A stretch of DNA of 64,000 nucleotides from Eledone cirrhosa (Eukaryota): the NCBI GenBank assembly GCA_964016885.1, contig OZ024744.1:128712001-128776000 (forward strand), read 5' to 3'. Shown here piece after piece: positions 2,179-38,696 of this stretch. A model generated the notes under the pieces. That model saw nothing but the letters and a program-made list of their open reading frames with translations. It did not search any database and was not told the origin of the DNA. The translations under genes and the position numbers were made by a program. Positions within the stretch are counted from its first letter, which is position 1; each line of letters starts with the position of its first letter.

Positions 2179-5100
2179 GTTGAGTTTAAGTTAAGTTGGG
2201 ATTAATTTAAGTTGGGGTTAAGTTAAGATGGGGTTAAGTTATGTTGAGGTTAAGTTAAGTTGGGGTTAAATTAAGTTGGGGTTAAGTTAAGTTGGGGTTA
2301 AGTTAAGTTGGGGTTAGGTTAAGTTGGGTTTAAGTTAAGTTGGGGATAAGTTAAGTTGGGGTTAAGTTAAGTTGGGTTTAAGTTAAGTTGGGGTTAAGTT
2401 AAGTTGGGGTTAAGTTAAGTTGGGGTTAAGTTAAGTTGGGGTTGAGTGAAGTTGGGGTTAAGTTAAGTTGGGGTTAAATTAAGTTGGGGTTAAGTTAAGT
2501 TGGGGTTGAGTGAAGTTGGGGTTAAGTTAAGTTGGGGTTAAATTAAGTTGGGGTTAAGTTTAGTTGGGGTTGAGTTAAGTTGGGGTTAATTTAAGTTGGG
2601 GCTAAGTTAATTTGTGGTTAAGTTAAGTTGGGGTTAAGTTAAGTTGGGGTTAAGTTAAGTTGGGGTTGAGTTAAGTTGGGGTTAAGTTAAGTTGGGTTTA
2701 AGTTAAGTTGGGGTTAAATTAAGTTGGGGTTAAATTAAGTTGGGGTTAAGTTAAGTTGGGGGTAAGTTAAGTTGGGGGCAAGTTAAGTTGGGGTTAAGTT
2801 AACTTGGGGTTAAGTTAAGTTGGGGTTAATTTAAGTTGGGGTTATGTTAAGTTGGGGTTAAGTTAAGTTGGGGTTAAGTTAAGTTGGGGCTAAGTTAAGT
2901 TGGAGCTAAGTTAAGTTGGGGCTAAGTTAAGTTGGGGTTAAGTTAAGTTGGGGTTAAGTTAAGGTGGGGTTAAGTTAAGTTGGGGTCAACTTAAGTTGGG
3001 GTTAAGTTAAGTTGGGGTTAACTTAAGTTGGGGTTAAGTTAAGTTGGGGTTAAGTTAAGTTGGAGTTAAGTTAAGTTGGGGTTACGTTAAGTTGGGGGTA
3101 AGTTAAGTTGGTGGTAAGTTAAGTTGGGGGTAAGTTAAGATGGGGTTAAGTTAGGGTTAAGTTAAGTTAGGGTTAAGTTAATTTGGGGTTGAGTTAAGTT
3201 GGGGTTAAGTTAAGTGGTGGTTATGTTAAGTTGGGGTTAAGTTAAGTTGGGGTTAATTTAAATTGGGGTTAATTTAAATTTGTTGTTAAGTTAAGTTGGG
3301 GTTAATTTAAGTTGGGGTTAAGTTAAGTTGGGGTTGAGTTAAGTTGGGGTTGAGTGAAGTTGGGGTTAAGTTAAGTTGGGGTTGAGTTAAGTTGGGGTTA
3401 ATTTAAGTTGGGGCTAAGTTCATTTGGGGTTCAGTTAAGTTGGGGTTAAATTAAGTTGGGGTTAAGTTAAGTTGGGGTTAAGTTAAGTTGGGGTTAAGTT
3501 AATTTGGGGTTAAGTGAAGTTAGGGTTAAGTTAAGTTGGGGTTGAGTTAAGTTGGGGGTAAGTTAAGTTGGGGTTATGTTAAGTTGGGGTTACGTTAAGT
3601 TGGGTTTAAGTTAAGTTGGGGTTAAGTTAAGTTGGGGTTAATTTAAGTTGGGGTTAAGTTAAGTTGGGATTAATTTAAGTTGGGGTTAAGTTAAGTTGGG
3701 GTTAAGTTAAGTTGGGGTTAAATTAAGTTGGGGTTAAGTTAAGTTGGGGTTAAGTTAAGTTGGGGTTAAGTTAATTTGGGGTTAAGTTAAGTTAGGGTAA
3801 AGTTAAGTTGGGGTTGAGTTAAGTTGGGGTAAGTTAAGTTGGGGTTAAGTTAAGTTGGGGTTAAGTTAAGTTGGGGTTAAGTTAAGTTAGGCTTAACTTA
3901 AGTTGGGGTTAAGTTAAGTTGGGGGTGAGTTAAGTTGGGGGTAAGTTAAGTTGGGGTTAAGTTGGGGTTAAGTTAAGTTAGGGTTAAGTTAATTTGGGGT
4001 TGAGTTAAGTTGGGGTTAAGTTAAGTGGTGGTTATGTTAAGTTGGGGTTAAGTTAAGTTGGGGTTAATTTAAATTGGGGTTAATTTAAATTTGTTGTTAA
4101 GTTAAGTTGGGGTTAATTTAAGTTGGGGTTAAGTTAAGTTGGGGTTGATTTAAGTTGTGGTTGAGTGAAGTTGGGGTTAAGTTAAGTTGGGGTTAAATTA
4201 AGTTGGGGTTAAGTTAAGTTGGGGTTGAGTTAAGTTGGGGTTAATTTAAGTTGGGGCTAAGTTAATTTGGGGTTAAGTTAAGTTGGGGTTAAATTAAGTT
4301 GGGGTTAAGTTAAGTTGGGGTTAAGTTAAGTTGGGGTTAAGTTAATTTGGGGTTAATTGAAGTTAGGGTTAAGTTAAGTTGGGGCTGAGTTAAATTGGGG
4401 GTAAGTTAAGTTGGGGTTATGTTAAGTTGGGGTTAAGTTAAGTTGGGGTTAAGTTAAGTTGGGGTTCAGTTAAGTTGCGGTTAAGTTAAGTTGGGGTTAA
4501 GTTAAGTTGGGGTTAAGTTAAGTTGGGGTTAATTTAAGTTGGGGTTAAGTTAAGTTGGGGTTAAGTTAAGTTGGGGTTAAATTCAGTCGGGGTTAAGTTA
4601 AGTCGGGGTTAAGTTACGTTGGGGTTAAGTTAAGTTGGGGTTAAGTTAAGTTGGGGTTGAGTTAAGTTGGGGTTAAGTTAAGTTGGGGTTAAGTTAAGTT
4701 GGGGTTAAGTTAAGTTGGGGTTAAGTTAAGTTGGGGTTAATTTAAGTTGGGGTTAAGTTAAGTTGGGGTTAAGTTAAGTTGGGGTAACGTTAAGTTGGGG
4801 GTAAGTTAAGTTGGGGTTAAGTTAAGTTGGGGTTAAGTTGGGGTTAAGTTAAGTTAGGGTTAACTTAAGTTGGGGTTGTGTTAAGTGGTGGTTATGTTAA
4901 GTGGTGGTTATGTTAAGTTGGGGTTAAGTTAAGTTGGGGTTAAGTTAAGTTGGGGTTAAGTTAATTAGGGTTAAGTTAAGTTGGGTTTAAGTTAAGTTGG
5001 GGTTAAGTTAATTTGTGGTTAAGTTAAGTTGGGGTTAAGTGAAGTTGGGGTTAAGTTAAGTTGGGGATAAGTTAAGTTGGGGATAAGTTAAGTTGGGGTT

Positions 5101-8100
5101 AATTAAGTTGGGTTTAAGTTAAGTTGGGATTAAGTTAAGTCGGGGTTAAGTTAAGTTGGGGTTAAGTTAAGTTGGTTAGTTAAGTTGAGTTTAAGTTAAG
5201 TTGGGGTTAATTTAAGTTGGGGTTAAGTTAAGTTGGGGTTAAGTTAAGTTGGGGTTAAGTTAAGTTGGGGTTCAGTTAAGTTGGGGTTAAGTTAAGTTGG
5301 GGTTAAGTTGGGGTAAAATTAAGTTGGGGTTAAGTTAAGTTGGGGTTAAGTTAAGTTGCGGTTAAGTTAAGTTGCCGTTAAGTTAAGTTGAGGTTAAGTT
5401 AAGTTGGGGTTAAGTTAAGTTGGGGTTAAGTTAAGTTGGGGCTAAGTTAAGTTGGGGCTAAGTTAAGTTGGGGTTAAGTTGGGGTTAAGTTAAGTTGCGG
5501 TTAAGTTAAGTTGATGTTAAGTTAAGTTGGGGTTAAGTTAAGTTGGGGTTAAGTTAAGTTGGGGCTAAGTTAAGTTGGAGCTGAGTTAAGTTGGGGCTAA
5601 GTTAAGTTGGGGTTAAGTTAAGTTGGGGTTAAGTTAAGGTGGGGTTAAGTTAAGTTGGGGTCAACTTAAGTTGGGGTTAAGTTAAGTTGGGGTTAACTTA
5701 AGTTGGGGTTAAGTTAAGTTGGGGTTAAGTTAAGTTGGGGTTAAGCTAAGTTGGGGTTACGTTAAGTTGGGGTTATGTTAAGTTGGGGTTACGTTAAGTT
5801 GGGTTTAAGTTAAGTTGGGGTTAAGTTAAGTTGGGGTTAAGTTAAGTTGGGGTTAATTTAAGTTGGGGTTAAGTTAAGTTGGGATTAATTTAAGTTGGGG
5901 TTAAGTTAAGTTGGGGTTAAGTTAAGTTGGGGTTAAATTAAGTTGGGGTTAAGTTAAGTTGGGGTTAAGTTAAGTTGGGGTTAAGTTAATTTGGGGTTAA
6001 GTTAAGTTAGGGTAAAGTTAAGTTGGGGTTGAGTTAAGTTGGGGTAAGTTAAGTTGGGGTTAAGTTAAGTTTGGGTTAAGTTAAGTTGGGGTTAAGTTAA
6101 GTTAGGCTTAACTTAAGTTGGGGTTAAGTTAAGTTGGGGGTGAGTTAAGTTGGGGGTAAGTTAAGTTGGGGTTAAGTTAAGTTGGGGTTAAGTTGGGGTT
6201 AAGTTAAGTTAGGGTTAAGTTAATTTGGGGTTGAGTTAAGTTGGGGTTAAGTTAAGTGGTGGTTATGTTAAGTTGGGGTTAAGTTAAGTTGGGGTTAATT
6301 TAAATTGGGGTTAATTTAAATTTGTTGTTAAGTTAAGTTGGGGTTAATTTAAGTTGGGGTTAAGTTAAGTTGGGGTTGAGTTAAGTTGTGGTTGAGTGAA
6401 GTTGGGGTTAAGTTAAGTTGGGGTTAAATTAAGTTGGGGTTAAGTTAAGTTGGGGTTGAGTTAAGTTGGGGTTAATTTAAGTTGGGGCTAAGTTAATTTG
6501 GGGTTAAGTTAAGTTGGGGTTAAATTAAGTTGGGGTTAAGTTAAGTTGGGGTTAAGTTAAGTTGGGGCTGAGTTAAGTTGGGGGTAAGTTAAGTTGGGGT
6601 TATGTTAAGTTGGGGTTAAGTTAAGTTGGGGTTAAGTTAAGTTGGGGTTCAGTTAAGTTGCGGTTAAGTTAAGTTGGGGTTAAGTTAAGTTGGGGTTAAG
6701 TTAAGTTGGGGTTAATTTAAGTTGGGGTTAAGTTAAGTTGGGGTTAAGTTAAGTTGGGGTTAAATTCAGTCGGGGTTAAGTTAAGTCGGGGTTAAGTTAC
6801 GTTGGGGTTAAGTTAAGTTGGGGTTAAGTTAAGTTGGGGTTGAGTTAAGTTGGGGTTAAGTTAAGTTGGTGTTAAGTTAAGTTGGGGTTAAGTTAAGTTG
6901 GGGTTAAGTTAAGTTGGGCTTAATTTAAGTTGGGGTTAATTTAAGTTGGGGTTAAGTTAAGTTGGGGTTAAGTTAAGTTGGGGTAACGTTAAGTTGGGGG
7001 TAAGTTAAGTTGGGGTTAAGTTAAGTTGGGGTTAAGTTGGGGTTAAGTTAAGTTAGGGTTAACTTAAGTTGGGGTTGTGTTAAGTGGTGGTTATGTTAAG
7101 TGGTGGTTATGTTAAGTTGGGGTTAAGTTAAGTTGGGGTTAAGTTAAGTTGGGGTTAAGTTAAGTTGGGGTTAAGTTAATTAGGGTTAAGTTAAGTTGGG
7201 TTTAATTTAAGTTGGGGTTAAGTTAATTTGTGGTTAAGTTAAGTTGGGGTTAAGTTAAGTTGGGGTTAAGTTAAGTTGGGGATAAGTTAAGTTGGGGATA
7301 AGTTAAGTTGGGGATAAGTTAAGTTGGGGTTAATTAAGTTGGCTTTAAGTTAAGTTGGGGTTAAGTTAAGTCGGGGTTAAGTTAAGTTGGGGTTAAGTTA
7401 AGTTGGTTAGTTAAGTTGAGTTTAAGTTAAGTTGGGGTTAATTTAAGTTGGGGTTAAGTTAAGTTGGGGTTAAGTTAAGTTGGGGTTAAGTTAAGTTGGG
7501 GTTCAGTTAAGTTGGGGTTAAGTTAAGTTGGGGTTAACTTGGGGTAAAATTAAGTTGGGGTTAAGTTAAGTTGGGGTTAAGTTAAGTTGCGGTTAAGTTA
7601 AGTTGCCGTTAAGTTAAGTTGAGGTTAAGTTAAGTTGGGGTTAAGTTAAGTTGGGGTTAAGTTAAGTTGGGGCTAAGTTAAGTTGGGGCTAAGTTAAGTT
7701 GGGGTTAAGTTAACTTTGGGTTAAGTTAAGTTGGGTTTGAGTTAAGTTGGGGTTAATTAAGTTGGGGTTAAGTTAAGTTGGGGTTAAGTTGGGGTTAAGT
7801 TAAGTTGCGGTTAAGTTAAGTTGATGTTAAGTTAAGTTGGGGTTAAGTTAAGTTGGGGTTAAGTTAAGTTGGGGCTAAGTTAAGTTGGAGCTGAGTTAAG
7901 TTGGATCTAAGTTAAGTTGGGGTTAAGTTAAGTTGGGGTTAAGTTAAGGTGGGGTTAAGTTAAGTTGGGGTCAACTTAAGTTGGGGTTAAGTTAAGTTGG
8001 GGTTAACTTAAGTTGGGGTTAAGTTAAGTTGGGGTTAAGTTAAGTTGGGGTTAAGTTAAGTTGGGGTTACGTTAAGTTGGGGGTAAGTCAAGTTGGTGTT

Positions 8101-11100
8101 AAGTTAAGTTGGCGGTAAGTTAAGATGGGGTTAAGTTAAGTTGGGGTTAATTTAATTTGGGGTTAAGTTAAGTTAGGGTTAAGTTAAGTTGGGGTTGAGT
8201 TAAGTTGGGGTTAAGTTAAGTTGGGGTTATGTTAAGTTGGGGTTAAGTTAAGTTGGGGTTAAGTTAAGTTGGGGTTCAATTAAGTTGCGGATAATTTAAG
8301 TTGGGGTTAAGTTAAGTTGGGGTTAAGTTAAGTTGGGGTTAAGTTAAGTTGGGGTTAAATTAAGTTGGGGTTAAATTAAGTTGGGGTTAAGTTAAGTTGG
8401 GGTTATGTTAAGTTGGTGTTAAGTTAAGTTGGGGTTAAGTTAAGTTGGGGTTAAGTTAGGTTGGTGTTAATTTAAGTTGGGGGTAAGTTAAGTTGGGGTA
8501 AGTTAAGTTGGTGTTAAGTTAAGTTGGGGTTAAGTTAAGTTGGGGTTAAATTAAGTTGGGGTTAAGTTAAGTTGGGGTTGAGTGAAGTTGGGGTTAAGTT
8601 AAGTTGGGGTTAAGTAAAGTTAGGGCTAAGTTAAGTTGGGGTTAAGTTAAGTTGGGGTTAATTTAAGTTGGGGTTACATTAAGTTGATGTTAAGTTAAGT
8701 TGGGGTTAAGTTAAGTTGGGGTTAAATTAAGTTGGGGTTAAATTAAGTTGGGGTTAAGTTAAGTTGGGGTTAAGTTAGGTTGGTGTTAAGTTAAGTTGGG
8801 GTTAAGTTAATTTGTGGTTAAGTTAAGTTGGGGTTAAGTTAAGTTGGGGTTAAGTTCAGTCGGGGTTAAGTTAAGTCGGGGTTAAGTTAAGTTGGGGTTA
8901 AGTTAAGTTGCGGTTAAGTTAAGTTGGGGTTAAGTTAAGTTGGGGTTAAGTTAATTAGGGTTAAGTTAAGTTGGGGTTAAGTTAAGTTGGGGTTAAGTTA
9001 AGTTGGGGTTAAGTTAAGTTGGGGTTAAGTTAAGTTGGGGTTAAGTTAAGTTGGGGTTAAGTTAATTTGGGGTTAAGTTAAGTTAGGGTAAAGTTAAGTT
9101 GGGGTTGAGTTAAGTTGGGGTAAGTTAAGTTGGGGTTAAGTTAAGTTTGGGTTAAGTTAAGTTGGGGTTAAGTTAAGTTAGGCTTAACTTAAGTTGGGGT
9201 TAAGTTAAGTTGGGGGTGAGTTAAGTTGGGGGTAAGTTAAGTTGGGGTTAAGTTAAGTTGGGGTTAAGTTGGGGTTAAGTTAAGTTAGGGTTAAGTTAAT
9301 TTGGGGTTGAGTTAAGTTGGGGTTAAGTTAAGTGGTGGTTATGTTAAGTTGGGGTTAAGTTAAGTTGGGGTTAATTTAAATTGGGGTTAATTTAAATTTG
9401 TTGTTAAGTTAAGTTGGGGTTAAGTTAAGTTGGGGTTGAGTTAAGTTGTGGTTGAGTGAAGTTGGGGTTAAGTTAAGTTGGGGTTAAATTAAGTTGGGGT
9501 TAAGTTAAGTTGGGGTTGAGTTAAGTTGGGGTTAATTTAAGTTGGGGCTAAGTTAATTTGGGGTTAAGTTAAGTTGGGGTTAAATTAAGTTGGGGTTAAG
9601 TTAAGTTGGGGTTAAGTTAAGTTGGGGTTAAGTTAATTTGGGGTTAAGTGAAGTTAGGGTTAAGTTAAGTTGGGGCTGAGTTAAGTTGGGGGTAAGTTAA
9701 GTTGGGGTTATGTTAAGTTGGGGTTAAGTTAAGTTGGGGTTAAGTTAAGTTGGGGTTCAGTTAAGTTGCGGTTAAGTTAAGTTGGGGTTAAGTTAAGTTG
9801 GGGTTAAGTTAAGTTGGGGTTAATTTAAGTTGGGGTTAAGTTAAGTTGGGGTTAAGTTAAGTTGGGGTTAAATTCAGTCGGGGTTAAGTTAAGTCGGGGT
9901 TAAGTTACGTTGGGGTTAAGTTAAGTTGGGGTTAAGTTAAGTTGGGGTTGAGTTAAGTTGGGGTTAAGTTAAGTTGGGGTTAAGTTAAGTTGGGGTTAAG
10001 TTAAGTTGGGGTTAATTTAAGTTGGGGTTAAGTTAAGTTGGGGTTAAGTTAAGTTGGGGTAACGTTAAGTTGGGGGTAAGTTAAGTTGGGGTTAAGTTAA
10101 GTTGGGGTTAAGTTGGGGTTAAGTTAAGTTAGGGTTAACTTAAGTTGGGGTTGTGTTAAGTGGTGGTTATGTTAAGTGGTGGTTATGTTAAGTTGGGGTT
10201 AAGTTAAGTTGGGGTTAAGTTAAGTTGGGGTTAAGTTAAGTTGGGGTTAAGTTAATTAGGGTTAAGTTAAGTTGGGTTTAAGTTAAGTTGGGGTTAAGTT
10301 AATTTGTGGTTAAGTTAAGTTGGGGTTAAGTTAAGTTGGGGTTAAGTTAAGTTGGGGATAAGTTAAGTTGGGGATAAGTTAAGTTGGGGTTAATTAAGTT
10401 GGGTTTAAGTTAAGTTGGGGTTAAGTTAAGTCGGGGTTAAGTTAAGTTGGGGTTAAGTTAAGTTGGTTAGTTAAGTTGAGTTTAAGTTAAGTTGGGGTTA
10501 ATTTAAGTTGGGGTTAAGTTAAGTTGGGGTTAAGTTAAGTTGGGGTTAAGTTAAGTTGGGGTTCAGTTAAGTTGGGGTTAAGTTAAGTTGGGGTTAACTT
10601 GGGGTAAAATTAAGTTGGGGTTAAGTTAAGTTGGGGTTAAGTTAAGTTGCGGTTAAGTTAAGTTGCCGTTAAGTTAAGTTGAGGTTAAGTTAAGTTGGGG
10701 TTAAGTTAAGTTGGGGTTAAGTTAAGTTGGGGCTAAGTTAAGTTGGGGCTAAGTTAAGTTGGGGTTAAGTTAACTTTGGGTTAAGTTAAGTTGGGTTTGA
10801 GTTAAGTTTGGGTTAATTAAGTTGGGGTTAAGTTAAGTTGGGGTTAAGTTGGGGTTAAGTTAAGTTGCGGTTAAGTTAAGTTGATGTTAAGTTAAGTTGG
10901 GGTTAAGTTAAGTTGGGGTTAAGTTAAGTTGGGGCTAAGTTAAGTTGGAGCTGAGTTAAGTTGGATCTAAGTTAAGTTGGGGTTAAGTTAAGTTGGGGTT
11001 AAGTTAAGGTGGGGTTAAGTTAAGTTGGGGTCAACTTAAGTTGGGGTTAAGTTAAGTTGGGGTTAACTTAAGTTGGGGTTAAGTTAAGTTGGGGTTAAGT

Positions 11101-14100
11101 TAAGTTGGGGTTAAGTTAAGTTGGGGTTACGTTAAGTTGGGGGTAAGTCAAGTTGGTGTTAAGTTAAGTTGGCGGTAAGTTAAGATGGGGTTAAGTTAAG
11201 TTGGGGTTAATTTAATTTGGGGTTAAGTTAAGTTAGGGTTAAGTTAAGTTGGGGTTGAGTTAAGTTGGGGTTAAGTTAAGTTGGGGTTATGTTAAGTTGG
11301 GGTTAAGTTAAGTTGGGGTTAAGTTAAGTTGGGGTTATGTTAAGTTGGGGTTAAGTTAAGTTGGGGTTAAGTTAAGTTGGGGTTCAATTAAGTTGGGGTT
11401 AAGTTAAGTTGGGGTTATGTTAAGTTGGTGTTAAGTTAAGTTGGGGTTAAGTTAAGTTGGGGTTAAGTTAGGTTGGTGTTAATTTAAGTTGGGGGTAGGT
11501 TAAGTTGGGGTAAGTTAAGTTGGTGTTAAGTTAAGTTGGGGTTAAGTTAAGTTGGCGTTAAGTTAAGTTGGGTTTAAGTTAAGTTGGGGCTAAGTTAAGT
11601 TAGGGCTAAGTTAAGTTGGGGTTAAGTAAAGTTAGGGCTAAGTTAAGTTGGGGTTAAGTTAAGTTGGGGTTAATTTAAGTTGGGGTTACATTAAGTTGAT
11701 GTTAAGTTAAGTTGGGGTTAAGTTAAGTTGGGGTTAAGTTAAGTTGGGGTTAAATTAAGTTGGGGTTAAATTAAGTTGGGGTTAAGTTAAGTTGGGGTTA
11801 AGTTAGGTTGGTGTTAAGTTAAGTTGGGGTTAAGTTAATTTGTGGTTAAGTTAAGTTGGGGTTAAGTTAAGTTGGGGTTAAGTTCAGTCGGGGTTAAGTT
11901 AAGTCGGGGTTAAGTTAAGTTGGGGTTAAGTTAAGTTGCGGTTAAGTTAAGTTGGGGTTAATTTAAGTTGGGGTTAAGTTAATTAGGGTTAAGTTAAGTT
12001 GGGGTTAAGTTAAGTTGGGGTTAAGTTAAGTTGGGGTTAAGTTAAGTTGGGTTTAAGTTAAGTTGGGGCTAAGTTAAGTTAGGGCTAAGTTAAGTTGGGG
12101 TTAAGTTAAGTTGGGGTTAATTTAAGTTGGGGTTACATTAAGTTGAGGTTAAGTTAAGTTGTGGTTAAGTTAAGTTAGGGTTAATTTAAGTTAGGGTTAT
12201 GTTAAGTTGGGGTTAAGTTAAGTTGGGGTTAAGTTAGGTTGGTGTTAAGTTAAGTTGGGGTTAAGTTAAGTTGGGGTTATGTTAAGTTGGGGTTAAGTTA
12301 AGTTGGGGTTAAGTTAAGTTAGGGTTGAGTTAAGTTGGGGTTGAGTTAAGTTGGGGTTGAGTGAAGTTGGGGTTAAGTTAAGTTGGGGTTAAATTAAGTT
12401 GGGGTTAAGTTAAGTTGGGGTTGAGTTAAGTTGGGGTTAATTTAAGTTGGGTTTAAGTTAAGTTGGGTTTAAGTTAAGTTGGGGTTGAATTAAGTTGGGG
12501 TTAAATTAAGTTGGGGTTAAGTTAAGTTGGGGGTAAGTTAAGTTGGGGGCAAGTTAAGTTGGGGTTAAGTTAAGTTGGGGTTAAGTTAAGTTGGGGTTAA
12601 TTTAAGTTGGGGTTATGTTAAGTTGGGGTTAAGTTAAGTTGGGGTTAAGTTAAGTTGGGGTTAAGTTAAGTTGGTGTTAAGTTAAGTTGGGGGTAAGTTA
12701 CGTTAGGGCTAAGTTACGTTGGGGTTAACTTAACCCCAACTTAACTTAACCCCAACTTAACTTAGACCCAACTTAACTGAGCCCCAACTTAACTTAACCC
12801 CAACGTAACTTAGCCCTAACGTAACTTACCCCCAACTTAACTTAACCCCAACTTAACTTAACCCCAACTTAACTTACCCCCAACTTAACTTACCCCCACC
12901 TTAACTTACCCCCAACTTAACTTAACCCCAACTTAACTTAACTTAACCCCAACTTAAGTTAAGTTTGGGTTAAGGTTGGGGTTAAATTAAGTTGGGGTTA
13001 AGTTAAGTTGGGGTTAAGTTAAGTTGGGGTTAAGTTAAGTTGGGGGTAAGTTAAGTTGGGGTTAAGTTAAGTTGGGGTTAAGTTAAGTTGGGGTTAAGTT
13101 AAGTTCGGGTTAAGTTAAGTTGGTGTTAAGTTAAGTTGGGGCTGAGTTAAGTTGGGGCTAAGTTAAGTTGGGTCTAAGTTAAGTTGGGGTTAAGTTAAGT
13201 TGAGGTTAAGTTAAGTTGGTGTTAAATTAAGTTGGGGTTAAATTAAGTTGGTGTTAAGTTAAGTTGGGGTTAAGTTAAGTTGGGGTTAATTAAGTTGGGG
13301 TTAAGTTAAGTTGGGGTTAAGTTAATTGGGGTTAAATTAAGTTAGGGTTGAGTTAAGTTGGGGTTAAGTTAAGTTGGGGTTATATTAAGTTGGGGTTAAG
13401 TTAAGTTGGGGTTAAGTAAAGTTGGGGTTCAGTTAATTTGGGGTTAAGTGAAGTTAGGGTTAAGTTAAGTTGGGGTTGAGTTAAGTTGGGGGTAAGTTAA
13501 GTTGGGGTTATGTTAAGTTGGGGTTACGTTAAGTTGGGTTTAAGTTAAGTTGGGGTTAAGTTAAGTTGGGGTTAAGTTAAGTTGGGGTTAATTTAAGTTG
13601 GGGTTAAGTTAATTTGGGCTTAATTTAAGTTGGGGTTAAGTTAAGTTGGGGTTAAGTTAAGTTGGGGTTAAATTAAGTTGGGCTTAAGTTAAGTTGGGGT
13701 TAAGTTAAGTTGGGGTTAAGTTAATTTGGGGTTAAGTTAAGTTAGGGTAAAGTTAAGTTGGGGTTGAGTTAAGTTGGGGTAAGTTAAGTTGGGGTTAAGT
13801 TAAGTTGGGGTTAAGTTAAGTTGGGGTTAAGTTAAGTTAGGCTTAACTTAAGTTGGGGTTAAGTTAAGTTGGGGGTGAGTTAAGTTGGGGGTAAGTTAAG
13901 TTGGGGTTAAGTTAAGTTGGGGTTAAGTTGGGGTTAAGTTAAGTTAGGGTTAAGTTAATTTGGGGTTGAGTTAAGTTGGGGTTAAGTTAAGTGGTGGTTA
14001 TGTTAAGTTGGGGTTAAGTTAAGTTGGGGTTAATTTAAATTGGGGTTAATTTAAATTTGTTGTTAAGTTAAGTTGGGGTTAATTTAAGTTGGGGTTAAGT

Positions 14101-17100
14101 TAAGTTGGGGTTGAGTTAAGTTGTGGTTGAGTGAAGTTGGGGTTAAGTTAAGTTGGGGTTAAATTAAGTTGGGGTTAAGTTAAGTTGGGGTTGAGTTAAG
14201 TTGGGGTTAATTTAAGTTGGGGCTAAGTTAATTTGGGGTTAAGTTAAGTTGGGGTTAAATTAAGTTGGGGTTAAGTTAAGTTGGGGTTAAGTTAAGTTGG
14301 GGTTAAGTTAATTTGGGGTTAAGTGAAGTTAGGGTTAAGTTAAGTTGGGGCTGAGTTAAGTTGGGGGTAAGTTAAGTTGGGGTTATGTTAAGTTGGGGTT
14401 AAGTTAAGTTGGGGTTAAGTTAAGTTGGGGTTCAGTTAAGTTGCGGTTAAGTTAAGTTGGGGTTAAGTTAAGTTGGGGTTAAGTTAAGTTGGGGTTAATT
14501 TAAGTTGTGGTTAAGTTAAGTTGGGGTTAAGTTAAGTTGGGGTTAAATTCAGTCGGGGTTAAGTTAAGTCGGGGTTAAGTTACGTTGGGGTTAAGTTAAG
14601 TTGGGGTTAAGTTAAGTTGGGGTTGAGTTAAGTTGGGGTTAAGTTAAGTTGGGGTTAAGTTAAGTTGGGGTTAAGTTAAGTTGGGGTTAATTTAAGTTGG
14701 GGTTAAGTTAAGTTGGGGTTAATTTAAGTTGGGGTTAATTTAAGTTGGGGTTAAGTTAAGTTGGGGTTAAGTTAAGTTGGGGTAACGTTAAGTTGGGGGT
14801 AAGTTAAGTTGGGGTTAAGTTAAGTTGGGGTTAAGTTGGGGTTAAGTTAAGTTAGGGTTAACTTAAGTTGGGGTTGTGTTAAGTGGTGGTTATGTTAAGT
14901 GGTGGTTATGTTAAGTTGGGGTTAAGTTAAGTTGGGGTTAAGTTAAGTTGGGGTTAAGTTAAGTTGGGGTTAAGTTAATTAGGGTTAAGTTAAGTTGGGT
15001 TTAAGTTAAGTTGGGGTTAAGTTAATTTGTGGTTAAGTTAAGTTGGGGTTAAGTTAAGTTGGGGATAAGTTAAGTTGGGGATAAGTTAAGTTGGGGTTAA
15101 TTAAGTTGGGTTTAAGTTAAGTTGGGGTTAAGTTAAGTCGGGGTTAAGTTAAGTTGGGGTTAAGTTAAGTTGGTTAGTTAAGTTGAGTTTAAGTTAAGTT
15201 GGGGTTAATTTAAGTTGGGGTTAAGTTAAGTTGGGGTTAAGTTAAGTTGGGGTTAAGTTGGGGTAAAATTAAGTTGGGGTTAAGTTAAGTTGGGGTTAAG
15301 TTAAGTTGCGGTTAAGTTAAGTTGCCGTTAAGTTAAGTTGGGGTTAAGTTAAGTTGGGGTTAAGTTAAGTTGGGGCTAAGTTAAGTTGGGGCTAAGTTAA
15401 GTTGGGGTTAAGTTAACTTTGGGTTAAGTTAAGTTGGGTTTGAGTTAAGTTGGGGTTAATTAAGTTGGGGTTAAGTTAAGTTGGGGTTAAGTTGGGGTTA
15501 AGTTAAGTTGCGGTTAAGTTAAGTTGATGTTAAGTTAAGTTGGGGTTAAGTTAAGTTGGGGTTAAGTTAAGTTGGGGCTAAGTTAAGTTGGAGCTGAGTT
15601 AAGTTGGGGCTAAGTTAAGTTGGGGTTAAGTTAAGTTGGGGTTAAGTTAAGGTGGGGTTAAGTTAAGTTGGGGTCAACTTAAGTTGGGGTTAAGTTAAGT
15701 TGGGGTTAACTTAAGTTGGGGTTAAGTTAAGTTGGGGTTAAGTTAAGTTGGGGTTAAGTTAAGTTGGGGTTACGTTAAGTTGGGGGTAAGTCAAGTTGGT
15801 GTTAAGTTAAGTTGGCGGTAAGTTAAGATGGGGTTAAGTTAAGTTGGGGTTAATTTAATTTGGGGTTAAGTTAAGTTAGGGTTAAGTTAAGTTGGGGTTG
15901 AGTTAAGTTGGGGTTAAGTTAAGTTGGGGTTATGTTAAGTTGGGGTTAAGTTAAGTTGGGGTTAAGTTAAGTTGGGGTTCAATTAAGTTGCGGATAATTT
16001 AAGTTGGGGTTAAGTTAAGTTGGGGTTAAGTTAAGTTGCGGTTAAGTTAAGTTGCCGTTAAGTTAAGTTGAGGTTAAGTTAAGTTGGGGTTAAGTTAAGT
16101 TGGGGTTAAGTTAAGTTGGGGCTAAGTTAAGTTGGGGCTAAGTTAAGTTGGGGTTAAGTTAACTTTGGGTTAAGTTAAGTTGGGTTTGAGTTAAGTTGGG
16201 GTTAATTAAGTTGGGGTTAAGTTAAGTTGGGGTTAAGTTGGGGTTAAGTTAAGTTGCGGTTAAGTTAAGTTGATGTTAAGTTAAGTTGGGGTTAAGTTAA
16301 GTTGGGGTTAAGTTAAGTTGGGGCTAAGTTAAGTTGGAGCTGAGTTAAGTTGGGGCTAAGTTAAGTTGGGGTTAAGTTAAGTTGGGGTTAAGTTAAGGTG
16401 GGGTTAAGTTAAGTTGGGGTCAACTTAAGTTGGGGTTAAGTTAAGTTGGGGTTAACTTAAGTTGGGGTTAAGTTAAGTTGGGGTTAAGTTAAGTTGGGGT
16501 TAAGTTAAGTTGGGGTTACGTTAAGTTGGGGGTAAGTCAAGTTGGTGTTAAGTTAAGTTGGCGGTAAGTTAAGATGGGGTTAAGTTAAGTTGGGGTTAAT
16601 TTAATTTGGGGTTAAGTTAAGTTAGGGTTAAGTTAAGTTGGGGTTGAGTTAAGTTGGGGTTAAGTTAAGTTGGGGTTATGTTAAGTTGGGGTTAAGTTAA
16701 GTTGGGGTTAAGTTAAGTTGGGGTTCAATTAAGTTGCGGATAATTTAAGTTGGGGTTAAGTTAAGTTGGGGTTAAGTTAAGTTGGGGTTAATTTAAGTTG
16801 GGGTTAAATTAAGTTGGGGTTAAATTAAGTTGGGGTTAAGTTAAGTTGGGGTTATGTTAAGTTGGTGTTAAGTTAAGTTGGGGTTAAGTTAAGTTGGGGT
16901 TAAGTTAGGTTGGTGTTAATTTAAGTTGGGGGTAAGTTAAGTTGGGGTAAGTTAAGTTGGTGTTAAGTTAAGTTGGGGTTAAGTTAAGTTGGGGTTAAGT
17001 TAAGTTGGGGTTCAATTAAGTTGCGGGTAATTTAAGTTGGGGTTAAGTTAAGTTGGGGGTACGTTAAGTTGGGGGTAAGTTAAGTTGGGGTTAAGTTAAG

Positions 17101-18344
17101 TTGGGGTTAAGTTAAGTCGGGGTTAATTTAAGTTGCGGTTAAGTTAAGTTGGGGTTAAGTTAAGTTGGGGTTAAGTTAAGTTGGGATTAAGTTAAGTTGG
17201 GGTTAAGTTAAGTTGGGGTTGAGTTAAGTTGGGGTTAAGTTAGATTATTGTTAATTTATTTTGGGGTTAAGTTAAGTTGGGGTTAAGTTAAGTTGGGGTT
17301 AATTTAAGTTGGGGTTAAGTTAAGTGGGGGTTAAGTTGAGTTGGGGTTAAGTTAAGTTGGGGTTAAGTTAAGTTGGGGTTAAGATAAGTTGGGGTTAAGT
17401 TAAGTTGGGGTTGAGTTAAGTTCGGGTTGAGTTAATTTGGGGTTAACTTAAGTTGGGGTTAACTTAAGTTGGGGTTAAGTTAAGTTGGGTTTATGTTAAG
17501 TTGGGGATAAGTTAAGTTGGGGTTAAGTTAAGTTGGGGTTCAATTAAGTTGCGGTTAATTTAAGTTGGGGTTAAGTTAAGTTGGGGTTAAGTTAAGTTGG
17601 GGTTAAGTTAAGTTGGGGTTAAATTAAGTAAGGGCTAAGTTAAGTTGAGGTTATGTTAAGTTGGTGTTAAGTTAAGTTGGGGTTAAGTTAAGTTGGGGTT
17701 AAGTTAAGTTGGGGTTTAAGTTAAGTTGGGGTTAAGTTAAGTTGGGGTTAATTTAATTTGGGGTTAAGTTAAGTTAGGGTTAAGTTAAGTTGGGGTTGAG
17801 TTAAGTTGGGGTTAAGTTAAGTTGGGGTTATGTTAAGTTGGGGATAAGTTAAGTTGGGGTTAAGTTAAGTTGGGGTTCAATTAAGTTGCGGTTAATTTAA
17901 GTTGGGGTTAAGTTAAGTTCGGGTTAAGTTAAGTTGGGGTTAAGTTAAGTTGGGGTTAACTTAAGTTAGGGCTAAGTTAAGTTGAGGTTATGTTAAGTTG
18001 GTGTTAAGTTAAGTTGGGGTTAAGTTAAGTTGGGGTTAAGTTAAGTTGGGGTTAAGTTAAGTTGGGTTTAAGTTAAGTTGGGGCTAAGTTAAGTTGGGGT
18101 TAAGTTAAGTTGGGGTTAAGTTAAGTTGGGGTTAAGTTAGGTTGGTGTTAAGTTAAGTTGGGGGTAAGTTAAGTTGGGGGTAAGTTAAGTTGGTGTTAAG
18201 TTAAGTTGGGGTTAAGTTAAGTTGGGGCTAAGTTAAGTTGGGTTTAAGTTAAGTTGGGTCTAAGTTAAGTTGGGGTTAAGTTAAGTTGGGGTTAACTTAA
18301 GTTGGGGGTAAGTTAAGTTGGGTTTGAGTTAAGTTGGGGTTAAG
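2179..18344 (+). repeat. 16-bp G-rich satellite array (TTAAGTTAAGTTGGGG)n, block 1
   Basis: Continuous 16-bp period with scattered substitutions and occasional 11-bp TTAAGTTGGGG units. G-rich on the + strand except at 12729-12955. Confidence 0.98.
12729..12955 (-). repeat. Inverted (C-rich) tract of the 16-bp satellite, copy 1 (227 bp)
   Basis: (CCCCAACTTAACTTAA)n begins at the hairpin GGGGTTAA-C-TTAACCCC and ends at the palindrome AACTT|AAGTT. Confidence 0.97.
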
Positions 18345-18790
18345 TTAGGTTTTTCGAAAACCTTATATAATCAATTTTTTTTAGGTTTTTCGAAAAATGT
18401 TATATAATCAATTTTTTTTAGGTTTTTCGAAAAACCTTATATAATCAATTTTTTTTTAGGTTTTTCGAAACACCTTATATAATCAATTTTTTTTAGGTTT
18501 TTCGAAAAACCTTATATAATCAATTTTTTTTAGGTTTTTTGAAAAACCTTATATAATCAATTTCTTTAGGTTTTTCGTAAAACCTTATATAATCAATTTT
18601 TTTAGGTTTTTCGAAAAACCTTATATAATTAATTTTTTTTAGGTTTTTCGAAATACCTTATATAATTAATTTTTTTTAGGTTTTTCGAAAAATCTTATAT
18701 AATTAATTTATATCTGATTTCAAATATTGATTTTTTTAGGTTTTTCGAAAACCTTATATAATCAATTTTTTTTAGGTTTTTCGAAAAAGA
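18345..18790. repeat. 36-38 bp palindromic minisatellite cluster (representative; present at both ends of each full island)
   Basis: About a dozen units of TTAGGTTTTTCGAAAAACCTTATATAATCAA(T)n. Length variation lies mostly in the T-run. The 18-bp core AGGTTTTTCGAAAAACCT is a perfect palindrome in consensus units. Confidence 0.93.
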
Positions 18791-20744
18791 ATGAATTCAT
18801 ATTCGAAATATATACTTCTGCATTAATCTTTTTACGTTTTTCTGATTTTTTGCATGTTTTGAAATTTAAAAAAAACGTAAAAAATTAATGCTTTTACAAA
18901 TATTTTGAAATATTTACTTTCTGGTTTCAAATTTTGCAAATTAAATTTTTTTCTAAAAAAATCAGTTTTCGAAATCAGAAGTTAATATTTCGAAAAACGC
19001 AATTTAAAAAACTCATATTAATTTTTTTTCGAATGAAGTTTTTTTATGCTTTTAGAAATATTTATATCTGATTTAAAATATTGATTTTTTTAGGTTTACC
19101 TTATATAATCAAACAAATTTTTTTAGGTTTTTCGAAATATCTTATATAATCAATTTTTTTTAGGTTTTTCGAAAAAGAATGAATTTGAGTTCATAGTCGA
19201 AATATATACTTCTGCATTAATCTTTGATTTTTTGCATGTTTTGAAATCTAAAAAAAACGTAAAAAATTAATGCTTTTACAAATATTTTGAAATATTTACT
19301 TTCTGGTTTCTAAGTTTGCAAATTAAATTTTTTTCGAAAAACCTAAAAAAAATCAGTTTTTGAAATCAGAAGTTAATATTTCGAAAAACGCAATTTGAAA
19401 AACTCATATTAATTTTTTTTCGAATGAAGTTTTTTATACTTTTAGAAATATTTATATCTGATTTCAAATATTGATTTTTTTAGGTTTTTCGAAAAAGAAT
19501 GAATTTGAGTTCATAGTCGAAATATATATTTCTGCATTAATCTTTTTACGTTTTTCTGATTTTTTGCATGTTTTGAAATTTAAAAAAAACGTAAAAAATC
19601 AATATTTCGAAAAACGCAATTTGAAAAACTCATATTCATTTTTTTTCGAATGAATTCTTTCATACTTTTAGAAATATTTATATCTGATTTTAAATATTGA
19701 TTTTTTTAGGTTTACCTTATATAATCAAATTTTTTTAGGTTTTTCGAAAAAGAATGAATTTGAGTTCATAGTCGAAATATATACTTCTGCATTAATCTTT
19801 TTACGTTTTTCTGATTTTTTGCATGTTTTGAAATTTAAAAAAAAACGTAAAAAATTAATGGTTTTACAAATATTTTGAAATATTTACTTTCTGGTTTCGA
19901 ATTTTGCAAATTAAATTTTTTTCGAAAAAAACCTAAAAAAATCAGTTTTCGAAATCAGAAGTTAATATTTCGAAAAACGCAATTTGAAAAACTCATATTA
20001 ATTTTTTTTCGAATGAAGTTTTTTTATGCTTTTAGAAATATTTATATCTGATTTCCAATATTGATTTTTTTTAGGTTTTTCGAAAAAGAATGAATTTGAG
20101 TTCATAGTCGAAATATATATTTCTGCATTGATCTTTGATTTTTTGCATGTTTTGAAATTTAAAAAAAAAGTAAAAAATTAATGATTTTACAAATATTTTG
20201 AAATATTTACTTTCTGGTTTCAAAGTTTGCAAATTAAATTTTTTTCGAAAAACCTAAAAAAAATCAGTTTTCGAAATCAGAAGTTAATATTTCGAAAAAC
20301 GCAATTTAAAAAACTCATATTAATTTTTTTTCGAATGAATTCTTTTAGAAATATTTATATCTGATTTCAAATATTGATTTTTTTAGGTTTACCTTATATA
20401 ATCAATTTTTTTTAGGTTTTTCAAAAACCTTATATAATCAATTTTTTTTAGGTTTTTCGAAAAACCTTACATAATCAATTTTTTTTAGGTTTTTTCGAAA
20501 AACCTTATATAATCAATTTTTTACGTTTTTAGAAAAACCTTATATAATCAATTTTTTTTATACTTTTAGAAATATTTATATCTTATTTCAAATATTGATT
20601 TTTTTTAGATTTTTCGAAATACCTTATATAATCAATTTTTTTTAGGTTTTTCGAAAGACCTTATATAATCAATTTTTTTTAGGTTTTTCGAAAAACCTTA
20701 TATAATCAATTTTTTTAGGTTTTTCGACAACCTTATATAATCAA
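18345..20744. repeat. AT-rich composite island 2 (2,400 bp)
   Basis: Near-identical to island 1 at offset 18,566. Left junction GGGGTTAAG|TTAGGTTTTTCGAAAA; same right junction as island 1. Confidence 0.95.
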
Positions 20745-22484
20745 GTTGAGTTTAAGTTAAGTTGGGATTAATTTAAGTTGGGGTTAAGTTAAGATGGGGT
20801 TAAGTTATGTTGAGGTTAAGTTAAGTTGGGGTTAAATTAAGTTGGGGTTAAGTTAAGTTGGGGTTAAGTTAAGTTGGGGTTAGGTTAAGTTGGGTTTAAG
20901 TTAAGTTGGGGATAAGTTAAGTTGGGGTTAAGTTAAGTTGGGTTTAAGTTAAGTTGGGGTTAAGTTAAGTTGGGGTTAAGTTAAGTTGGGGTTAAGTTAA
21001 GTTGGGGTTGAGTGAAGTTGGGGTTAAGTTAAGTTGGGGTTAAATTAAGTTGGGGTTAAGTTAAGTTGGGGTTGAGTGAAGTTGGGGTTAAGTTAAGTTG
21101 GGGTTAAATTAAGTTGGGGTTAAGTTTAGTTGGGGTTGAGTTAAGTTGGGGTTAATTTAAGTTGGGGCTAAGTTAATTTGTGGTTAAGTTAAGTTGGGGT
21201 TAAGTTAAGTTGGGGTTAAGTTAAGTTGGGGTTGAGTTAAGTTGGGGTTAAGTTAAGTTGGGTTTAAGTTAAGTTGGGGTTAAATTAAGTTGGGGTTAAA
21301 TTAAGTTGGGGTTAAGTTAAGTTGGGGGTAAGTTAAGTTGGGGGCAAGTTAAGTTGGGGTTAAGTTAACTTGGGGTTAAGTTAAGTTGGGGTTAATTTAA
21401 GTTGGGGTTATGTTAAGTTGGGGTTAAGTTAAGTTGGGGTTAAGTTAAGTTGGGGCTAAGTTAAGTTGGAGCTAAGTTAAGTTGGGGCTAAGTTAAGTTG
21501 GGGTTAAGTTAAGTTGGGGTTAAGTTAAGGTGGGGTTAAGTTAAGTTGGGGTCAACTTAAGTTGGGGTTAAGTTAAGTTGGGGTTAACTTAAGTTGGGGT
21601 TAAGTTAAGTTGGGGTTAAGTTAAGTTGGAGTTAAGTTAAGTTGGGGTTACGTTAAGTTGGGGGTAAGTTAAGTTGGTGGTAAGTTAAGTTGGGGGTAAG
21701 TTAAGATGGGGTTAAGTTAGGGTTAAGTTAAGTTAGGGTTAAGTTAATTTGGGGTTGAGTTAAGTTGGGGTTAAGTTAAGTGGTGGTTATGTTAAGTTGG
21801 GGTTAAGTTAAGTTGGGGTTAATTTAAATTGGGGTTAATTTAAATTTGTTGTTAAGTTAAGTTGGGGTTAATTTAAGTTGGGGTTAAGTTAAGTTGGGGT
21901 TGAGTTAAGTTGGGGTTGAGTGAAGTTGGGGTTAAGTTAAGTTGGGGTTGAGTTAAGTTGGGGTTAATTTAAGTTGGGGCTAAGTTCATTTGGGGTTCAG
22001 TTAAGTTGGGGTTAAATTAAGTTGGGGTTAAGTTAAGTTGGGGTTAAGTTAAGTTGGGGTTAAGTTAATTTGGGGTTAAGTGAAGTTAGGGTTAAGTTAA
22101 GTTGGGGTTGAGTTAAGTTGGGGGTAAGTTAAGTTGGGGTTATGTTAAGTTGGGGTTACGTTAAGTTGGGTTTAAGTTAAGTTGGGGTTAAGTTAAGTTG
22201 GGGTTAATTTAAGTTGGGGTTAAGTTAAGTTGGGATTAATTTAAGTTGGGGTTAAGTTAAGTTGGGGTTAAGTTAAGTTGGGGTTAAATTAAGTTGGGGT
22301 TAAGTTAAGTTGGGGTTAAGTTAAGTTGGGGTTAAGTTAATTTGGGGTTAAGTTAAGTTAGGGTAAAGTTAAGTTGGGGTTGAGTTAAGTTGGGGTAAGT
22401 TAAGTTGGGGTTAAGTTAAGTTGGGGTTAAGTTAAGTTGGGGTTAAGTTAAGTTAGGCTTAACTTAAGTTGGGGTTAAGTTAAG
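20745..22484 (+). repeat. 16-bp G-rich satellite, short block 2
   Basis: Same variant order as 2179-~3920, then cut abruptly at ...GGTTAAGTTAAG|TTTTTTTCGAAAAACC. Confidence 0.97.
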
Positions 22485-23669
22485 TTTTTTTCGAAAAACC
22501 TAAAAAAATCAGTTTTCGAAATCAGAAGTTAATATTTCGAAAAACGCAATTTTAAAAACTCATATTAATTTTTTTTCGAATGAATTCTTTCATACTTTTA
22601 GAAATATTTATATCTGATTTCAAATATTGATTTTTTTTAGGTTTTTCGAAAAATCTTATATAATCAATTTTTTTTAGGTTTTTCGAAAAAGAATGAATTT
22701 GAGTTCATAGTCGAAATATATACTTCTGCATTAATCTTTGATTTTTTGCATGTTTTGAAATTTAAAAAAAACGTAAAAAAACAATATTTCGAAAAACGCA
22801 ATTTGAAAAACTCATATTAATTTTTTTTCGAATGAATTCTTTTATACTTTTAGAAATATTTATATCTGATTTTAAATATTGATTTTTTTAGGTTTACCTT
22901 ATATAATCAAATTTTTTTAGGTTGTTCGAAAAATCTTATATAATCAAATTTTTTTAGGTTTTTCGAAAAAGAATTTGAGTTCATAGTCGAAATATATACT
23001 TCTGCATTAATCTTTTTACGTTTTTCTGATTTTTTGCATGTTTTGAAATTTAAAAAAAACGTAAAAAATTAATGCTTTTACAAATATTTTGAAATATTTA
23101 CTTTCTGGTTTCAAATTTTGTAAATTAAATTTTTTTCGAAAAACCTAAAAAAATCAGTTTTCGAAATCAGAAGTTAATATTTCGAAAAACGCAATTTAAA
23201 AAACTCATATTAATTTTTTTTCGAATGAATTCTTTTAGAAATATTTATATCTGATTTCAAATATTGATTTTTTTAGGTTTACCTTATATAATCAAATTTT
23301 TTTAGGTTTTTCAAAAACCTTATATAATCAATTTTTTTTAGGTTTTTCGAAAAACCTTACATAATCAATTTTTTTTAGGTTTTTTCGAAAAACCTTATAT
23401 AATCAATTTTTTACGTTTTTAGAAAAACCTTATATAATCAATTTTTTTATACTTTTAGAAATATTTATATCTTATTTCAAATATTGATTTTTTTTAGATT
23501 TTTCGAAATACCTTATATAATCAATTTTTCTAGGTGTTTCGAAAAACCTTATATAATCAATTTTTTTTAGGTTTTTCGAAAGACCTTATATAATCAATTT
23601 TTTTTAGGTTTTTCGAAAAACCTTATATAATCAATTTTTTTAGGTTTTTCGACAACCTTATATAATCAA
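22485..23669. repeat. AT-rich island 3: 5'-truncated, diverged copy (1,185 bp)
   Basis: Starts mid-unit at TTTTTTTCGAAAAACCTAAAAAAATCAG. Private variants GTTGTTCGAA, GAAAAAGAATTTGAG and CTAGGTGTTTCG. Ends with the usual CGACAACCTTATATAATCAA. Confidence 0.93.
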
Positions 23670-36160: not shown

Positions 36161-38696
36161 TTAGGTTTTTCGAAAACCTTATATAATCATTTTTTTTTAG
36201 GTTTTTCGAAACACCTTATATAATCAATTTTTTTATGTTTTTCGAAAAACCTTATATAATCATTTTTTTTATACTTTTAGAAATATTTATATCTGATTTC
36301 AAATATTTATTTTTCTAGGTTTTTCGAAAACCTTATATAATCAATTTTTTTTAGGTTTTTCGAAAAATGTTATATAATCAATTTTTTTTAGGTTTTTCGA
36401 AAAACCTTATATAATCAATTTTTTTTTAGGTTTTTCGAAACACCTTATATAATCAATTTTTTTTAGGTTTTTCGAAAAACCTTATATAATCAATTTTTTT
36501 TAGGTTTTTCGAAAAACCTTATATAATCAATTTTTTTAGGTTTTTCGTAAAACCTTATATAATCAATTTTTTTAGGTTTTTCGAAAAACCTTATATAATC
36601 AATTTTTTTTAGGTTTTTCGAAATACCTTATATAATTAATTTTTTTTAGGTTTTTCGAAAAATCTTATATAATTAATTTATATCTGATTTCAAATATTGA
36701 TTTTTTTAGGTTTTTCGAAAACCTTATATAATCAATTTTTTTTAGGTTTTTCGAAAAAGAATGAATTCATATTCGAAATATATACTTCTGCATTAATCTT
36801 TTTTGCATGTTTTGAAATTTAAAAAAAACGTAAAAAATTAATGCTTTTACAAATATTTTGAAATATTTACTTTCTGGTTTCAAATTTTGCAAATTAAATT
36901 TTTTTCTAAAAAAATCAGTTTTCGAAATCAGAAGTTAATATTTCGAAAAACGCAATTTAAAAAACTCATATTAATTTTTTTTCGAATGAAGTTTTTTTAT
37001 GCTTTTAGAAATATTTATATCTGATTTAAAATATTGATTTTTTTAGGTTTACCTTATATAATCAAACAAATTTTTTTAGGTTTTTCGAAATATCTTATAT
37101 AATCAATTTTTTTTAGGTTTTTCGAAAAAGAATGAATTTGAGTTCATAGTCGAAATATATACTTCTGCATTAATCTTTGATTTTTTGCATGTTTTGAAAT
37201 CTAAAAAAAACGTAAAAAATTAATGCTTTTACAAATATTTTGAAATATTTACTTTCTGGTTTCTAAGTTTGCAAATTAAATTTTTTTCGAAAAACCTAAA
37301 AAAAATCAGTTTTTGAAATCAGAAGTTAATATTTCGAAAAACGCAATTTGAAAAACTCATATTAATTTTTTTTCGAATGAAGTTTTTTATACTTTTAGAA
37401 ATATTTATATCTGATTTCAAATATTGATTTTTTTAGGTTTTTCGAAAAAGAATGAATTTGAGTTCATAGTCGAAATATATATTTCTGCATTAATCTTTTT
37501 ACGTTTTTCTGATTTTTTGCATGTTTTGAAATTTAAAAAAAACGTAAAAAATCAATATTTCGAAAAACGCAATTTGAAAAACTCATATTCATTTTTTTTC
37601 GAATGAATTCTTTCATACTTTTAGAAATATTTATATCTGATTTTAAATATTGATTTTTTTAGGTTTACCTTATATAATCAAATTTTTTTAGGTTTTTCGA
37701 AAAAGAATGAATTTGAGTTCATAGTCGAAATATATACTTCTGCATTAATCTTTTTACGTTTTTCTGATTTTTTGCATGTTTTGAAATTTAAAAAAAAACG
37801 TAAAAAATTAATGGTTTTACAAATATTTTGAAATATTTACTTTCTGGTTTCGAATTTTGCAAATTAAATTTTTTTCGAAAAAAACCTAAAAAAATCAGTT
37901 TTCGAAATCAGAAGTTAATATTTCGAAAAACGCAATTTGAAAAACTCATATTAATTTTTTTTCGAATGAAGTTTTTTTATGCTTTTAGAAATATTTATAT
38001 CTGATTTCCAATATTGATTTTTTTTAGGTTTTTCGAAAAAGAATGAATTTGAGTTCATAGTCGAAATATATATTTCTGCATTGATCTTTGATTTTTTGCA
38101 TGTTTTGAAATTTAAAAAAAAAGTAAAAAATTAATGATTTTACAAATATTTTGAAATATTTACTTTCTGGTTTCAAAGTTTGCAAATTAAATTTTTTTCG
38201 AAAAACCTAAAAAAATCAGTTTTCGAAATCAGAAGTTAATATTTCGAAAAACGCAATTTAAAAAACTCATATTAATTTTTTTTCGAATGAATTCTTTTAG
38301 AAATATTTATATCTGATTTCAAATATTGATTTTTTTAGGTTTACCTTATATAATCAATTTTTTTTAGGTTTTTCAAAAACCTTATATAATCAATTTTTTT
38401 TAGGTTTTTCGAAAAACCTTACATAATCAATTTTTTTTAGGTTTTTTCGAAAAACCTTATATAATCAATTTTTTACGTTTTTAGAAAAACCTTATATAAT
38501 CAATTTTTTTTATACTTTTAGAAATATTTATATCTTATTTCAAATATTGATTTTTTTTAGATTTTTCGAAATACCTTATATAATCAATTTTTTTTAGGTT
38601 TTTCGAAAGACCTTATATAATCAATTTTTTTTAGGTTTTTCGAAAAACCTTATATAATCAATTTTTTTAGGTTTTTCGACAACCTTATATAATCAA
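36161..38696. repeat. AT-rich composite island 4 (2,536 bp)
   Basis: Matches island 1 at offset ~36,519. Longer 5' minisatellite section containing ATAATCATTTTTTTT variants. Confidence 0.95.

Follow-up and report, generated by a model that had tools for sequence, protein, structure and literature searches.

Within a satellite array of Eledone cirrhosa we describe a micro-inversion that has the form of an inverted repeat with an inverted spacer and is present in 30 copies; we consider it an even call that this structure arose by one inter-strand replication template switch, likely carried to its present copy number by amplification of the array. The structure exemplifies clearly a type of mutation that is already known and involves no new mechanism; it is a mutation scar without sign of function which can nevertheless serve as homology for further inversions.

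The inverted tract and its setting in the satellite

The window, by which we mean the whole stretch of 64,000 nucleotides that was analysed (C28:128,712,001-128,776,000, C28 being contig OZ024744.1), belongs to a genome of 3.0 Gb and is formed by a 16-bp satellite with the unit GTTGGGGTTAAGTTAA, interrupted by AT-rich blocks of approximately 2.2-2.5 kb with 37-bp subrepeats. Approximately 1.06 Mb of sequence was read in the genome, comprising the window and 100 stretches, and the satellite was present in the loci sampled at C28 126.97-134.0 Mb, at C28 124.6 Mb and on contig C3. Monomers are coded by the base and position at which they depart from the unit, the unit itself being written '.'. 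The features of the window are the following.

2179-18348, plus strand: satellite block holding copy 1, unit GTTGGGGTTAAGTTAA, part of a multi-megabase array
1-2178, 18349-20744, 22501-23674, 36165-38696, 43575-46106 and 60009-62291: AT-rich blocks
12676-12728, plus strand: forward arm of copy 1, 53 bp exact, with the diagnostic 40-mer at 12689-12728
12725-12728, no strand: left junction, a self-complementary TTAA common to both orientations, read from the sequence
12729-12793, minus strand: spacer of copy 1, 65 nt, four monomers inverted
12794-12846, minus strand: inverted arm of copy 1, exact reverse complement of 12676-12728
12847-12953, minus strand: distal inverted tract of copy 1, unmatched by today's upstream flank, its final 21-nt monomer at 12933-12953
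12954-12957, no strand: right junction, TTAA, read from the sequence
12963-12974, plus strand: 12-nt monomer that has lost its TTAA, adjoining the right junction; of 31 matches across the genome, 30 follow the inversion directly and 1 stands without it
13135-13198, plus strand: downstream block similar to the spacer, belonging to an older related motif that is found without the inversion too
30398-30741, no strand: copy 2, with forward arm 30398-30496, spacer 30497-30561, inverted arm 30562-30660 (99 bp exact) and distal part to 30737
55621-55932, no strand: copy 3, with forward arm 55621-55703, spacer 55704-55768, inverted arm 55769-55851 (83 bp exact) and distal part to 55928

The 37-bp subrepeats of the AT-rich blocks contain a 16-bp palindrome, and the blocks are co-amplified with the satellite. 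The single block that was tested (18300-20800) gave no Rfam match and held only 5 stop-to-stop frames, of 60-68 aa. At C28 ~124.598 Mb the 16-bp satellite adjoins a related repeat that has diverged further and abounds in the words CTTAGA and CCCAAG. The same 16-bp satellite is also carried by contig C3 at 184.77-185.22 Mb, where two 10-kb samples contained no inverted tracts.

The preliminary description had reported an upstream flank whose exact reverse complement reappears inside the tract, and this observation is borne out by the 40-mer at 12689-12728, which has its reverse complement at 12794-12833 after 65 nt, the pair recurring at 30457/30562 and 55664/55769; the GGTG/CACC variant to which the match was said to extend does lie inside the exact arms of copies 2 and 3 (99 bp and 83 bp). 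Read on the minus strand, the tract of copy 2 runs 21-nt monomer, '.', G7, G1G7, G7, '.', '.', T5, G7C15, A3C7C15, '.', C7C9, T6C7, '.', '.', and its upstream flank ends T11, T10, '.', '.', '.', T5, G7C15, A3C7C15 plus 11 nt. The order forward arm, inverted spacer, inverted arm is found in the 30 copies. Arms and spacers were measured in 29 of them, one copy having been missed by the search pattern. The spacer is 65 nt long in 28 of these 29 and 49 nt in the other; in 20 the exact arms span 83 or 99 bp and include 6 variant sites, in seven they span 39-53 bp, and in two, where a mutation adjoins the junction, they are shorter than 10 bp. The spacer between the arms is itself inverted, with four monomers that are not those of the flank coming first after the left junction.

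The whole tract measures 210-243 bp, equivalent to 13-15 inverted monomers. The claim that it is a copy of its own flank does not stand at this length, the match being limited to 83-99 bp. The distal 62-79 nt (107 nt in copy 1) are unmatched by the upstream flank in the 29 copies measured, and this part reads G7 G7 G7 as against G7 G7C8 '.' '.' T11 T10 in today's flank. The 21-nt monomer occurs 3 times in the forward array versus 28 times inverted (864 kb), and both it and the 12-nt monomer at the right junction probably arose in the event.

Copy number, reads and topology

Across the genome the string at the left junction is matched exactly at 29 places, all of them at C28 128.56-129.60 Mb, and the count of 30 copies adds to these 2 mutated junctions and subtracts 1 match that lies inside a secondary duplication. 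Over 1.04 Mb the 30 copies fall into 18 variant patterns with nested, lineage-like changes; judging by the sequences, copies that share both junctions likely represent one event, later amplified, and because the shared junctions belong to one amplified family the three copies of the window are not independent events. Chance adjacency of arm and flank is excluded by the diagnostic 28-mer core, all of whose 59 matches in the 3.0 Gb genome are at inversion loci, with at most one forward and at most one reversed match per locus. The most divergent copy of the inversion (C28:129,591,640-129,591,930) has a different upstream flank, with a 21-nt monomer; this monomer was considered as the remnant of a longer arm, and it is not counted as support since its sequence differs.

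The left junction is unconfirmed in the independent public reads that were used, 7 of the 8 runs listed, depth being zero over 12702-12718 in four out of four runs and over 12684-12723 in four out of four runs at 100% likeness (7 runs in total). Two contig pieces, of 48 and 70 nt and at depth 100 and 78, do cross the right junction with no differences, and they fall short of bridging it, since pieces lacking 31 letters on one side are not counted as bridging; both come from one sample, which may or may not be the source of the assembly. It is scarcely credible that the inversion is an artefact of assembly or reads: the left junction unseen in 7 runs speaks in favour of this, but holes in read depth prove nothing, the 18 variant patterns show nested changes such as a lineage would produce, and the two pieces that cross the right junction are free of errors.

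That the structure is an inverted duplication and not a simple flip, as had been stated from the outset, is supported by arms of 83-99 bp with 6 variant sites, which a plain flip produces at fewer than 0.1% of breakpoints. In the simulation breakpoints were placed in the forward array, and the 250 nt that followed had to contain an exact direct copy of the flank ending there; at least 6 shared variant sites were reached at 19 of 24,254 breakpoints and at least 5 at 45. A second null, built at the level of monomers, gave at least 6 sites in 11 of 24,722 cases and at least 5 in 83, or 9 and 45 of 12,133 when only distinct contexts are considered. A plain flip of a segment that already held a direct duplication of the variant block is very improbable. 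Local monomer duplications are common in the array, the forward flank of some copies included, and would make such a segment available; against it stand the null of 0.04-0.08% and the fact that un-flipping at both TTAA sites leaves out-of-phase monomers of 11 nt and 21 nt exactly at the breakpoints.

The proposal that a 3' end folded back and primed itself, taken as a single event, fails on the inverted orientation of the 65-nt spacer, an outcome beyond a single fold-back, which would leave the loop forward and have the variant monomers copied at the junction itself. A mirror snap-back, with replication running the other way, fails as well because the downstream flank has no template. An intra-strand snap-back is suggested by the inverted flank copy adjoining the flank and by the self-complementary TTAA; with the spacer inverted and the first four copied monomers differing from those of the flank, we regard it as next to impossible. 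In the four-point model for template switches a fold-back is possible only with point 2 ahead of point 1 and is unable to invert a spacer (PMC5453318); this intra-strand rule is kept in PMC7954356, where the claim that all events are inter-strand is overturned. The other reading offered in the preliminary description, that a fork switched strands, does fit the topology with an inverted spacer.

Small inverted triplications (DUP/IN/DUP), described in PMC13334657 with a similar size of 148/160/148 bp and 6-bp junctions, were also considered; a palindromic 3' end that invades the opposite strand is proposed there as their origin. This class was rejected, as the inverted arm is not followed by another direct copy and the 28-mer occurs at most once per orientation at each locus.

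Origin of the tract

An inverted repeat with inverted spacer corresponds to type 3-1-2-4 of the four-point model, which requires an inter-strand switch (PMC5453318). In the switch that we propose for the present tract the nascent 3' end would halt at ...GGGG-TTAA (12728) and pair via TTAA with the opposite template approximately 65 nt ahead, leading to the backward copying of some 210-245 nt that run through the spacer, past the departure point and along the upstream flank. Synthesis would return at another TTAA near the landing site, with the switch order 3-1-2-4, or 3-1-4-2 with an overlap of a few bases, and the odd 21-nt and 12-nt monomers beside the return point may represent slips of the switched synthesis. 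Before amplification the upstream flank would have gained or exchanged about four monomers, shrinking the visible arm to its 83-99 bp. This later change must be assumed because of the distal nucleotides that no measured copy matches; it is plausible since monomer-level indels are frequent among the copies.

The proposed switch is favoured by the forward arm ending at the junction, which would be the first switch point, by the TTAA overlap at both junctions, and by a 1,265-bp event of the same topology in which the parent is preserved (see below). Counting against it are the distal mismatch, the zero depth at the left junction, the failure to find a pre-event allele in this genome, a spacer that is nearer to the downstream flank than to the un-inverted relatives, a second family of micro-inversions without an upstream arm in 19 of 20 copies examined, and the length of the tract, 211-243 bp as compared with a maximum of 128 bp in apes (PMC7954356). 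The same inverted repeat with inverted spacer characterises types 3-1-2-4 and 1-3-4-2 (PMC5453318; PMC7954356), to which the tract can be likened in the way it would work, 3-1-2-4 being the type that its sequence resembles. The copied piece in the ape gold-standard set has a median of 12 and the said maximum of 128, in a survey that filtered out repeat-masked templates (PMC7954356), whereas the tract of E. cirrhosa sits in satellite DNA. Unlike the four-point switches described, it has been amplified to 30 copies, and no ancestral allele that would give its polarity was found.

At the junctions, the preliminary description had placed both switch points in TTAA-based palindromes. The strings are as written there and both junctions are TTAA; the longer palindromes are not causes. 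A repeat joined to its own reverse complement yields such palindromes as by-products: when the unit was joined forward to reverse at arbitrary points, 246 of 256 products had a stem of at least 11 bp, and the palindromes were accordingly rejected as a cause. When distinct joins are considered, a 4-nt TTAA overlap is seen in only 4 of 208, and 176 of 208 have no overlap, so that two junctions of this kind suggest microhomology. The 4-nt overlap is thus the only informative feature of the junctions.

The long cruciform that had been envisaged is not upheld: the perfect arms are 65 nt apart, and perfect stems with loops of up to 10 nt reach 11-12 bp. Single strands are predicted to fold strongly, the full stem having -195 kcal/mol in the 1-nt register versus -165 kcal/mol in the register with the 65-nt loop. 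In two copies, on both strands, the top minimum-energy registers omit the one that pairs the exact arms, from which it follows that the hairpin potential is generic to any inverted tract in the array. A 52-bp spacer abolished the frequent stalling of forks at inverted Alu repeats in eukaryotic cells, according to a review (PMC7999016), and the persistence of the tract in 30 copies fits a tolerated structure.

A somewhat improbable origin, and one that would leave an identical product, is that of staggered breaks in one chromatid or two sisters, followed by fill-in and microhomology-mediated end joining, by which the piece between the breaks is inverted and the stretch between the left-hand breaks is duplicated. 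Breaks of this type are reported to yield inversions with inverted duplication of the breakpoint sequence, the same product as that of a switch, in Drosophila (PMC1885836), although the cases there are chromosome-scale and duplicate genes or non-repetitive DNA and the present one is of 0.23 kb within a satellite. The TTAA overlaps and the small indels beside the junction suit end joining equally well. However, three or four breaks would be needed within approximately 250 bp, the arm is predicted at full length so that the distal mismatch is unexplained there too, and the 23 bp of homology in the secondary event suit a switch better.

The likeness of the spacer to the sequence at 13,140-13,200, pointed out earlier, is real, with 2 mismatches between its reverse complement and the downstream flank at 13146 in copy 1 and 1 in copies 2 and 3, and the downstream flank is closer (1 mismatch) than the un-inverted relatives, which differ at 2 sites. 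As to where the spacer comes from, these relatives suggest that it was the arm's own original continuation. A genome search for arm end plus spacer, with at most 3 mismatches, gave 168 matches; among the 100 listed, 75 are found elsewhere than at copies of the inversion, and in the 36 that were viewed in context arm end and spacer are contiguous and in the local orientation of the array. In a gapless alignment with relatives at 132.0-132.7 Mb, thirteen tract monomers differ at 12 of 208 nt and agree at 7 of 13 variant sites, although 5 of these 7 sites were selected by the search, the relatives having been chosen on a 60-nt core. Three features are shared outside that selection: two G7 at the distal end of the tract, in register, in many relatives at 132 and 124.6 Mb; the run A11 A11 x G7 G7C8, common to relatives and forward flank; and the A11 after the relatives' motif, which also opens the downstream flank. 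We infer that flank, spacer and downstream start may once have formed one forward motif, of which the tract would be the contiguous reverse copy.

Genome searches for a pre-event allele, using the variant block with one free position and the start of the downstream flank, gave copies of the inversion and one flank; the latter, at C28 129,601,434, is a downstream flank without inversion and with unrelated sequence upstream, and is read as a recombinant. The rarest monomer of the spacer has 222 forward matches in the genome, the 100 listed being all on contig C3.

Two alternatives account for the unmatched distal part without the later flank change that the template switch demands. One of them invokes two steps, a flip and then a fold-back or gene conversion between tract and flank that made 83-99 bp identical, so that a snap-back would have come only after the inversion. 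This explains the inverted spacer as well, and we hold it to be unlikely: it would have to pick the register with the 65-nt loop in spite of the greater stability of the 1-nt register, it requires two adjacent paralogues of the same motif beforehand, and any change in the core of the arms affects just one arm in the 30 copies, which gives no sign of ongoing conversion. The other, which appears quite unlikely, is a single event with multiple switches that took approximately 65 nt from the downstream block (13,135-13,198), then the upstream flank, then a third source, before an in-phase return. The single mismatch between spacer and downstream block in copies 2 and 3 is in line with it, and so is the in-phase joining of forward and downstream flanks at TTAA; yet four switches are needed, and the tract keeps, free of gaps, the spacing of an older forward motif that is frequent in the array, for which independent jumps give no reason.

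Larger inverted duplications and orientation switches

At C28:128,584,615-128,587,180 an AT-rich block has at its centre a perfect inverted repeat of 1,265 bp, present in single copy and with the assembly as its only source, whose 36-nt spacer is inverted. Left arm plus spacer show 0 mismatches in 1,301 positions against two neighbouring parent copies; at the entry point, 23 bp are homologous to the inner arm of the micro-inversion. On this comparison of sequences the inverted duplication is of the mirror type 1-3-4-2, with the parent intact, and appears to have been seeded by one copy of the micro-inversion.

A second head-to-head TTAA junction was represented by 774 matches of a 22-mer, the 100 listed being all on C28, which may belong to one family or more. 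Of 8 loci sampled at 130.2-131.8 Mb, 6 contain it at a density of 3-7 per 10 kb, and the domain dense in junctions spans 130.2-132.7 Mb. In 19 of the 20 copies that were examined, no more than 2 variant sites are common to tract and upstream flank, and the exception has a 24-nt match that resembles a phase artefact. Tracts of this second micro-inversion family, of approximately 150-420 bp, are observed at C28:124.6-124.7 Mb and 130.2-133.0 Mb.

As a tentative possibility, TTAA-primed strand switches could make micro-inversions that become fixed in the higher-order unit and then provide homology for larger inverted duplications, perhaps as marks of the working centromere domain; the scale cited for this reading is that of 30 copies here and up to 774 for the second junction, one every 1.5-3 kb over part of the array. 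If true, it would amount to a route, taken in steps and resolved to the monomer, along which satellite arrays acquire dyads at regular spacing as well as orientation switches. The gain of inverted segments in satellites can rarely be read because monomers look alike. In the present case rare variants fix the topology, with plain flip and single fold-back ruled out, a neighbouring copy shows the next step in the form of a larger inverted duplication with its parent intact, and the junctions are lineage markers with which the expansion of the array can be traced. The value is that of a worked example, since the class of mechanism is already known, only one event is involved and nothing points to a function. 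A literature search for template switching or micro-inversions in satellite arrays found none, which is weak evidence of novelty and does not establish absence from print.

The macro-dyads of Tribolium (PMC13081366) share with the present case the orientation switches in satellite arrays and one inversion site repeated many times. As described there they are multi-kilobase inverted subarrays at thousands of sites, ascribed to ectopic recombination, whereas the tract of E. cirrhosa comprises 13-15 inverted monomers (210-243 bp) at 30 sites of one contig. At C28:133,000,001-133,010,000 and at 124.6 Mb entire satellite blocks are reversed, so that large-scale orientation switches occur in this array too.
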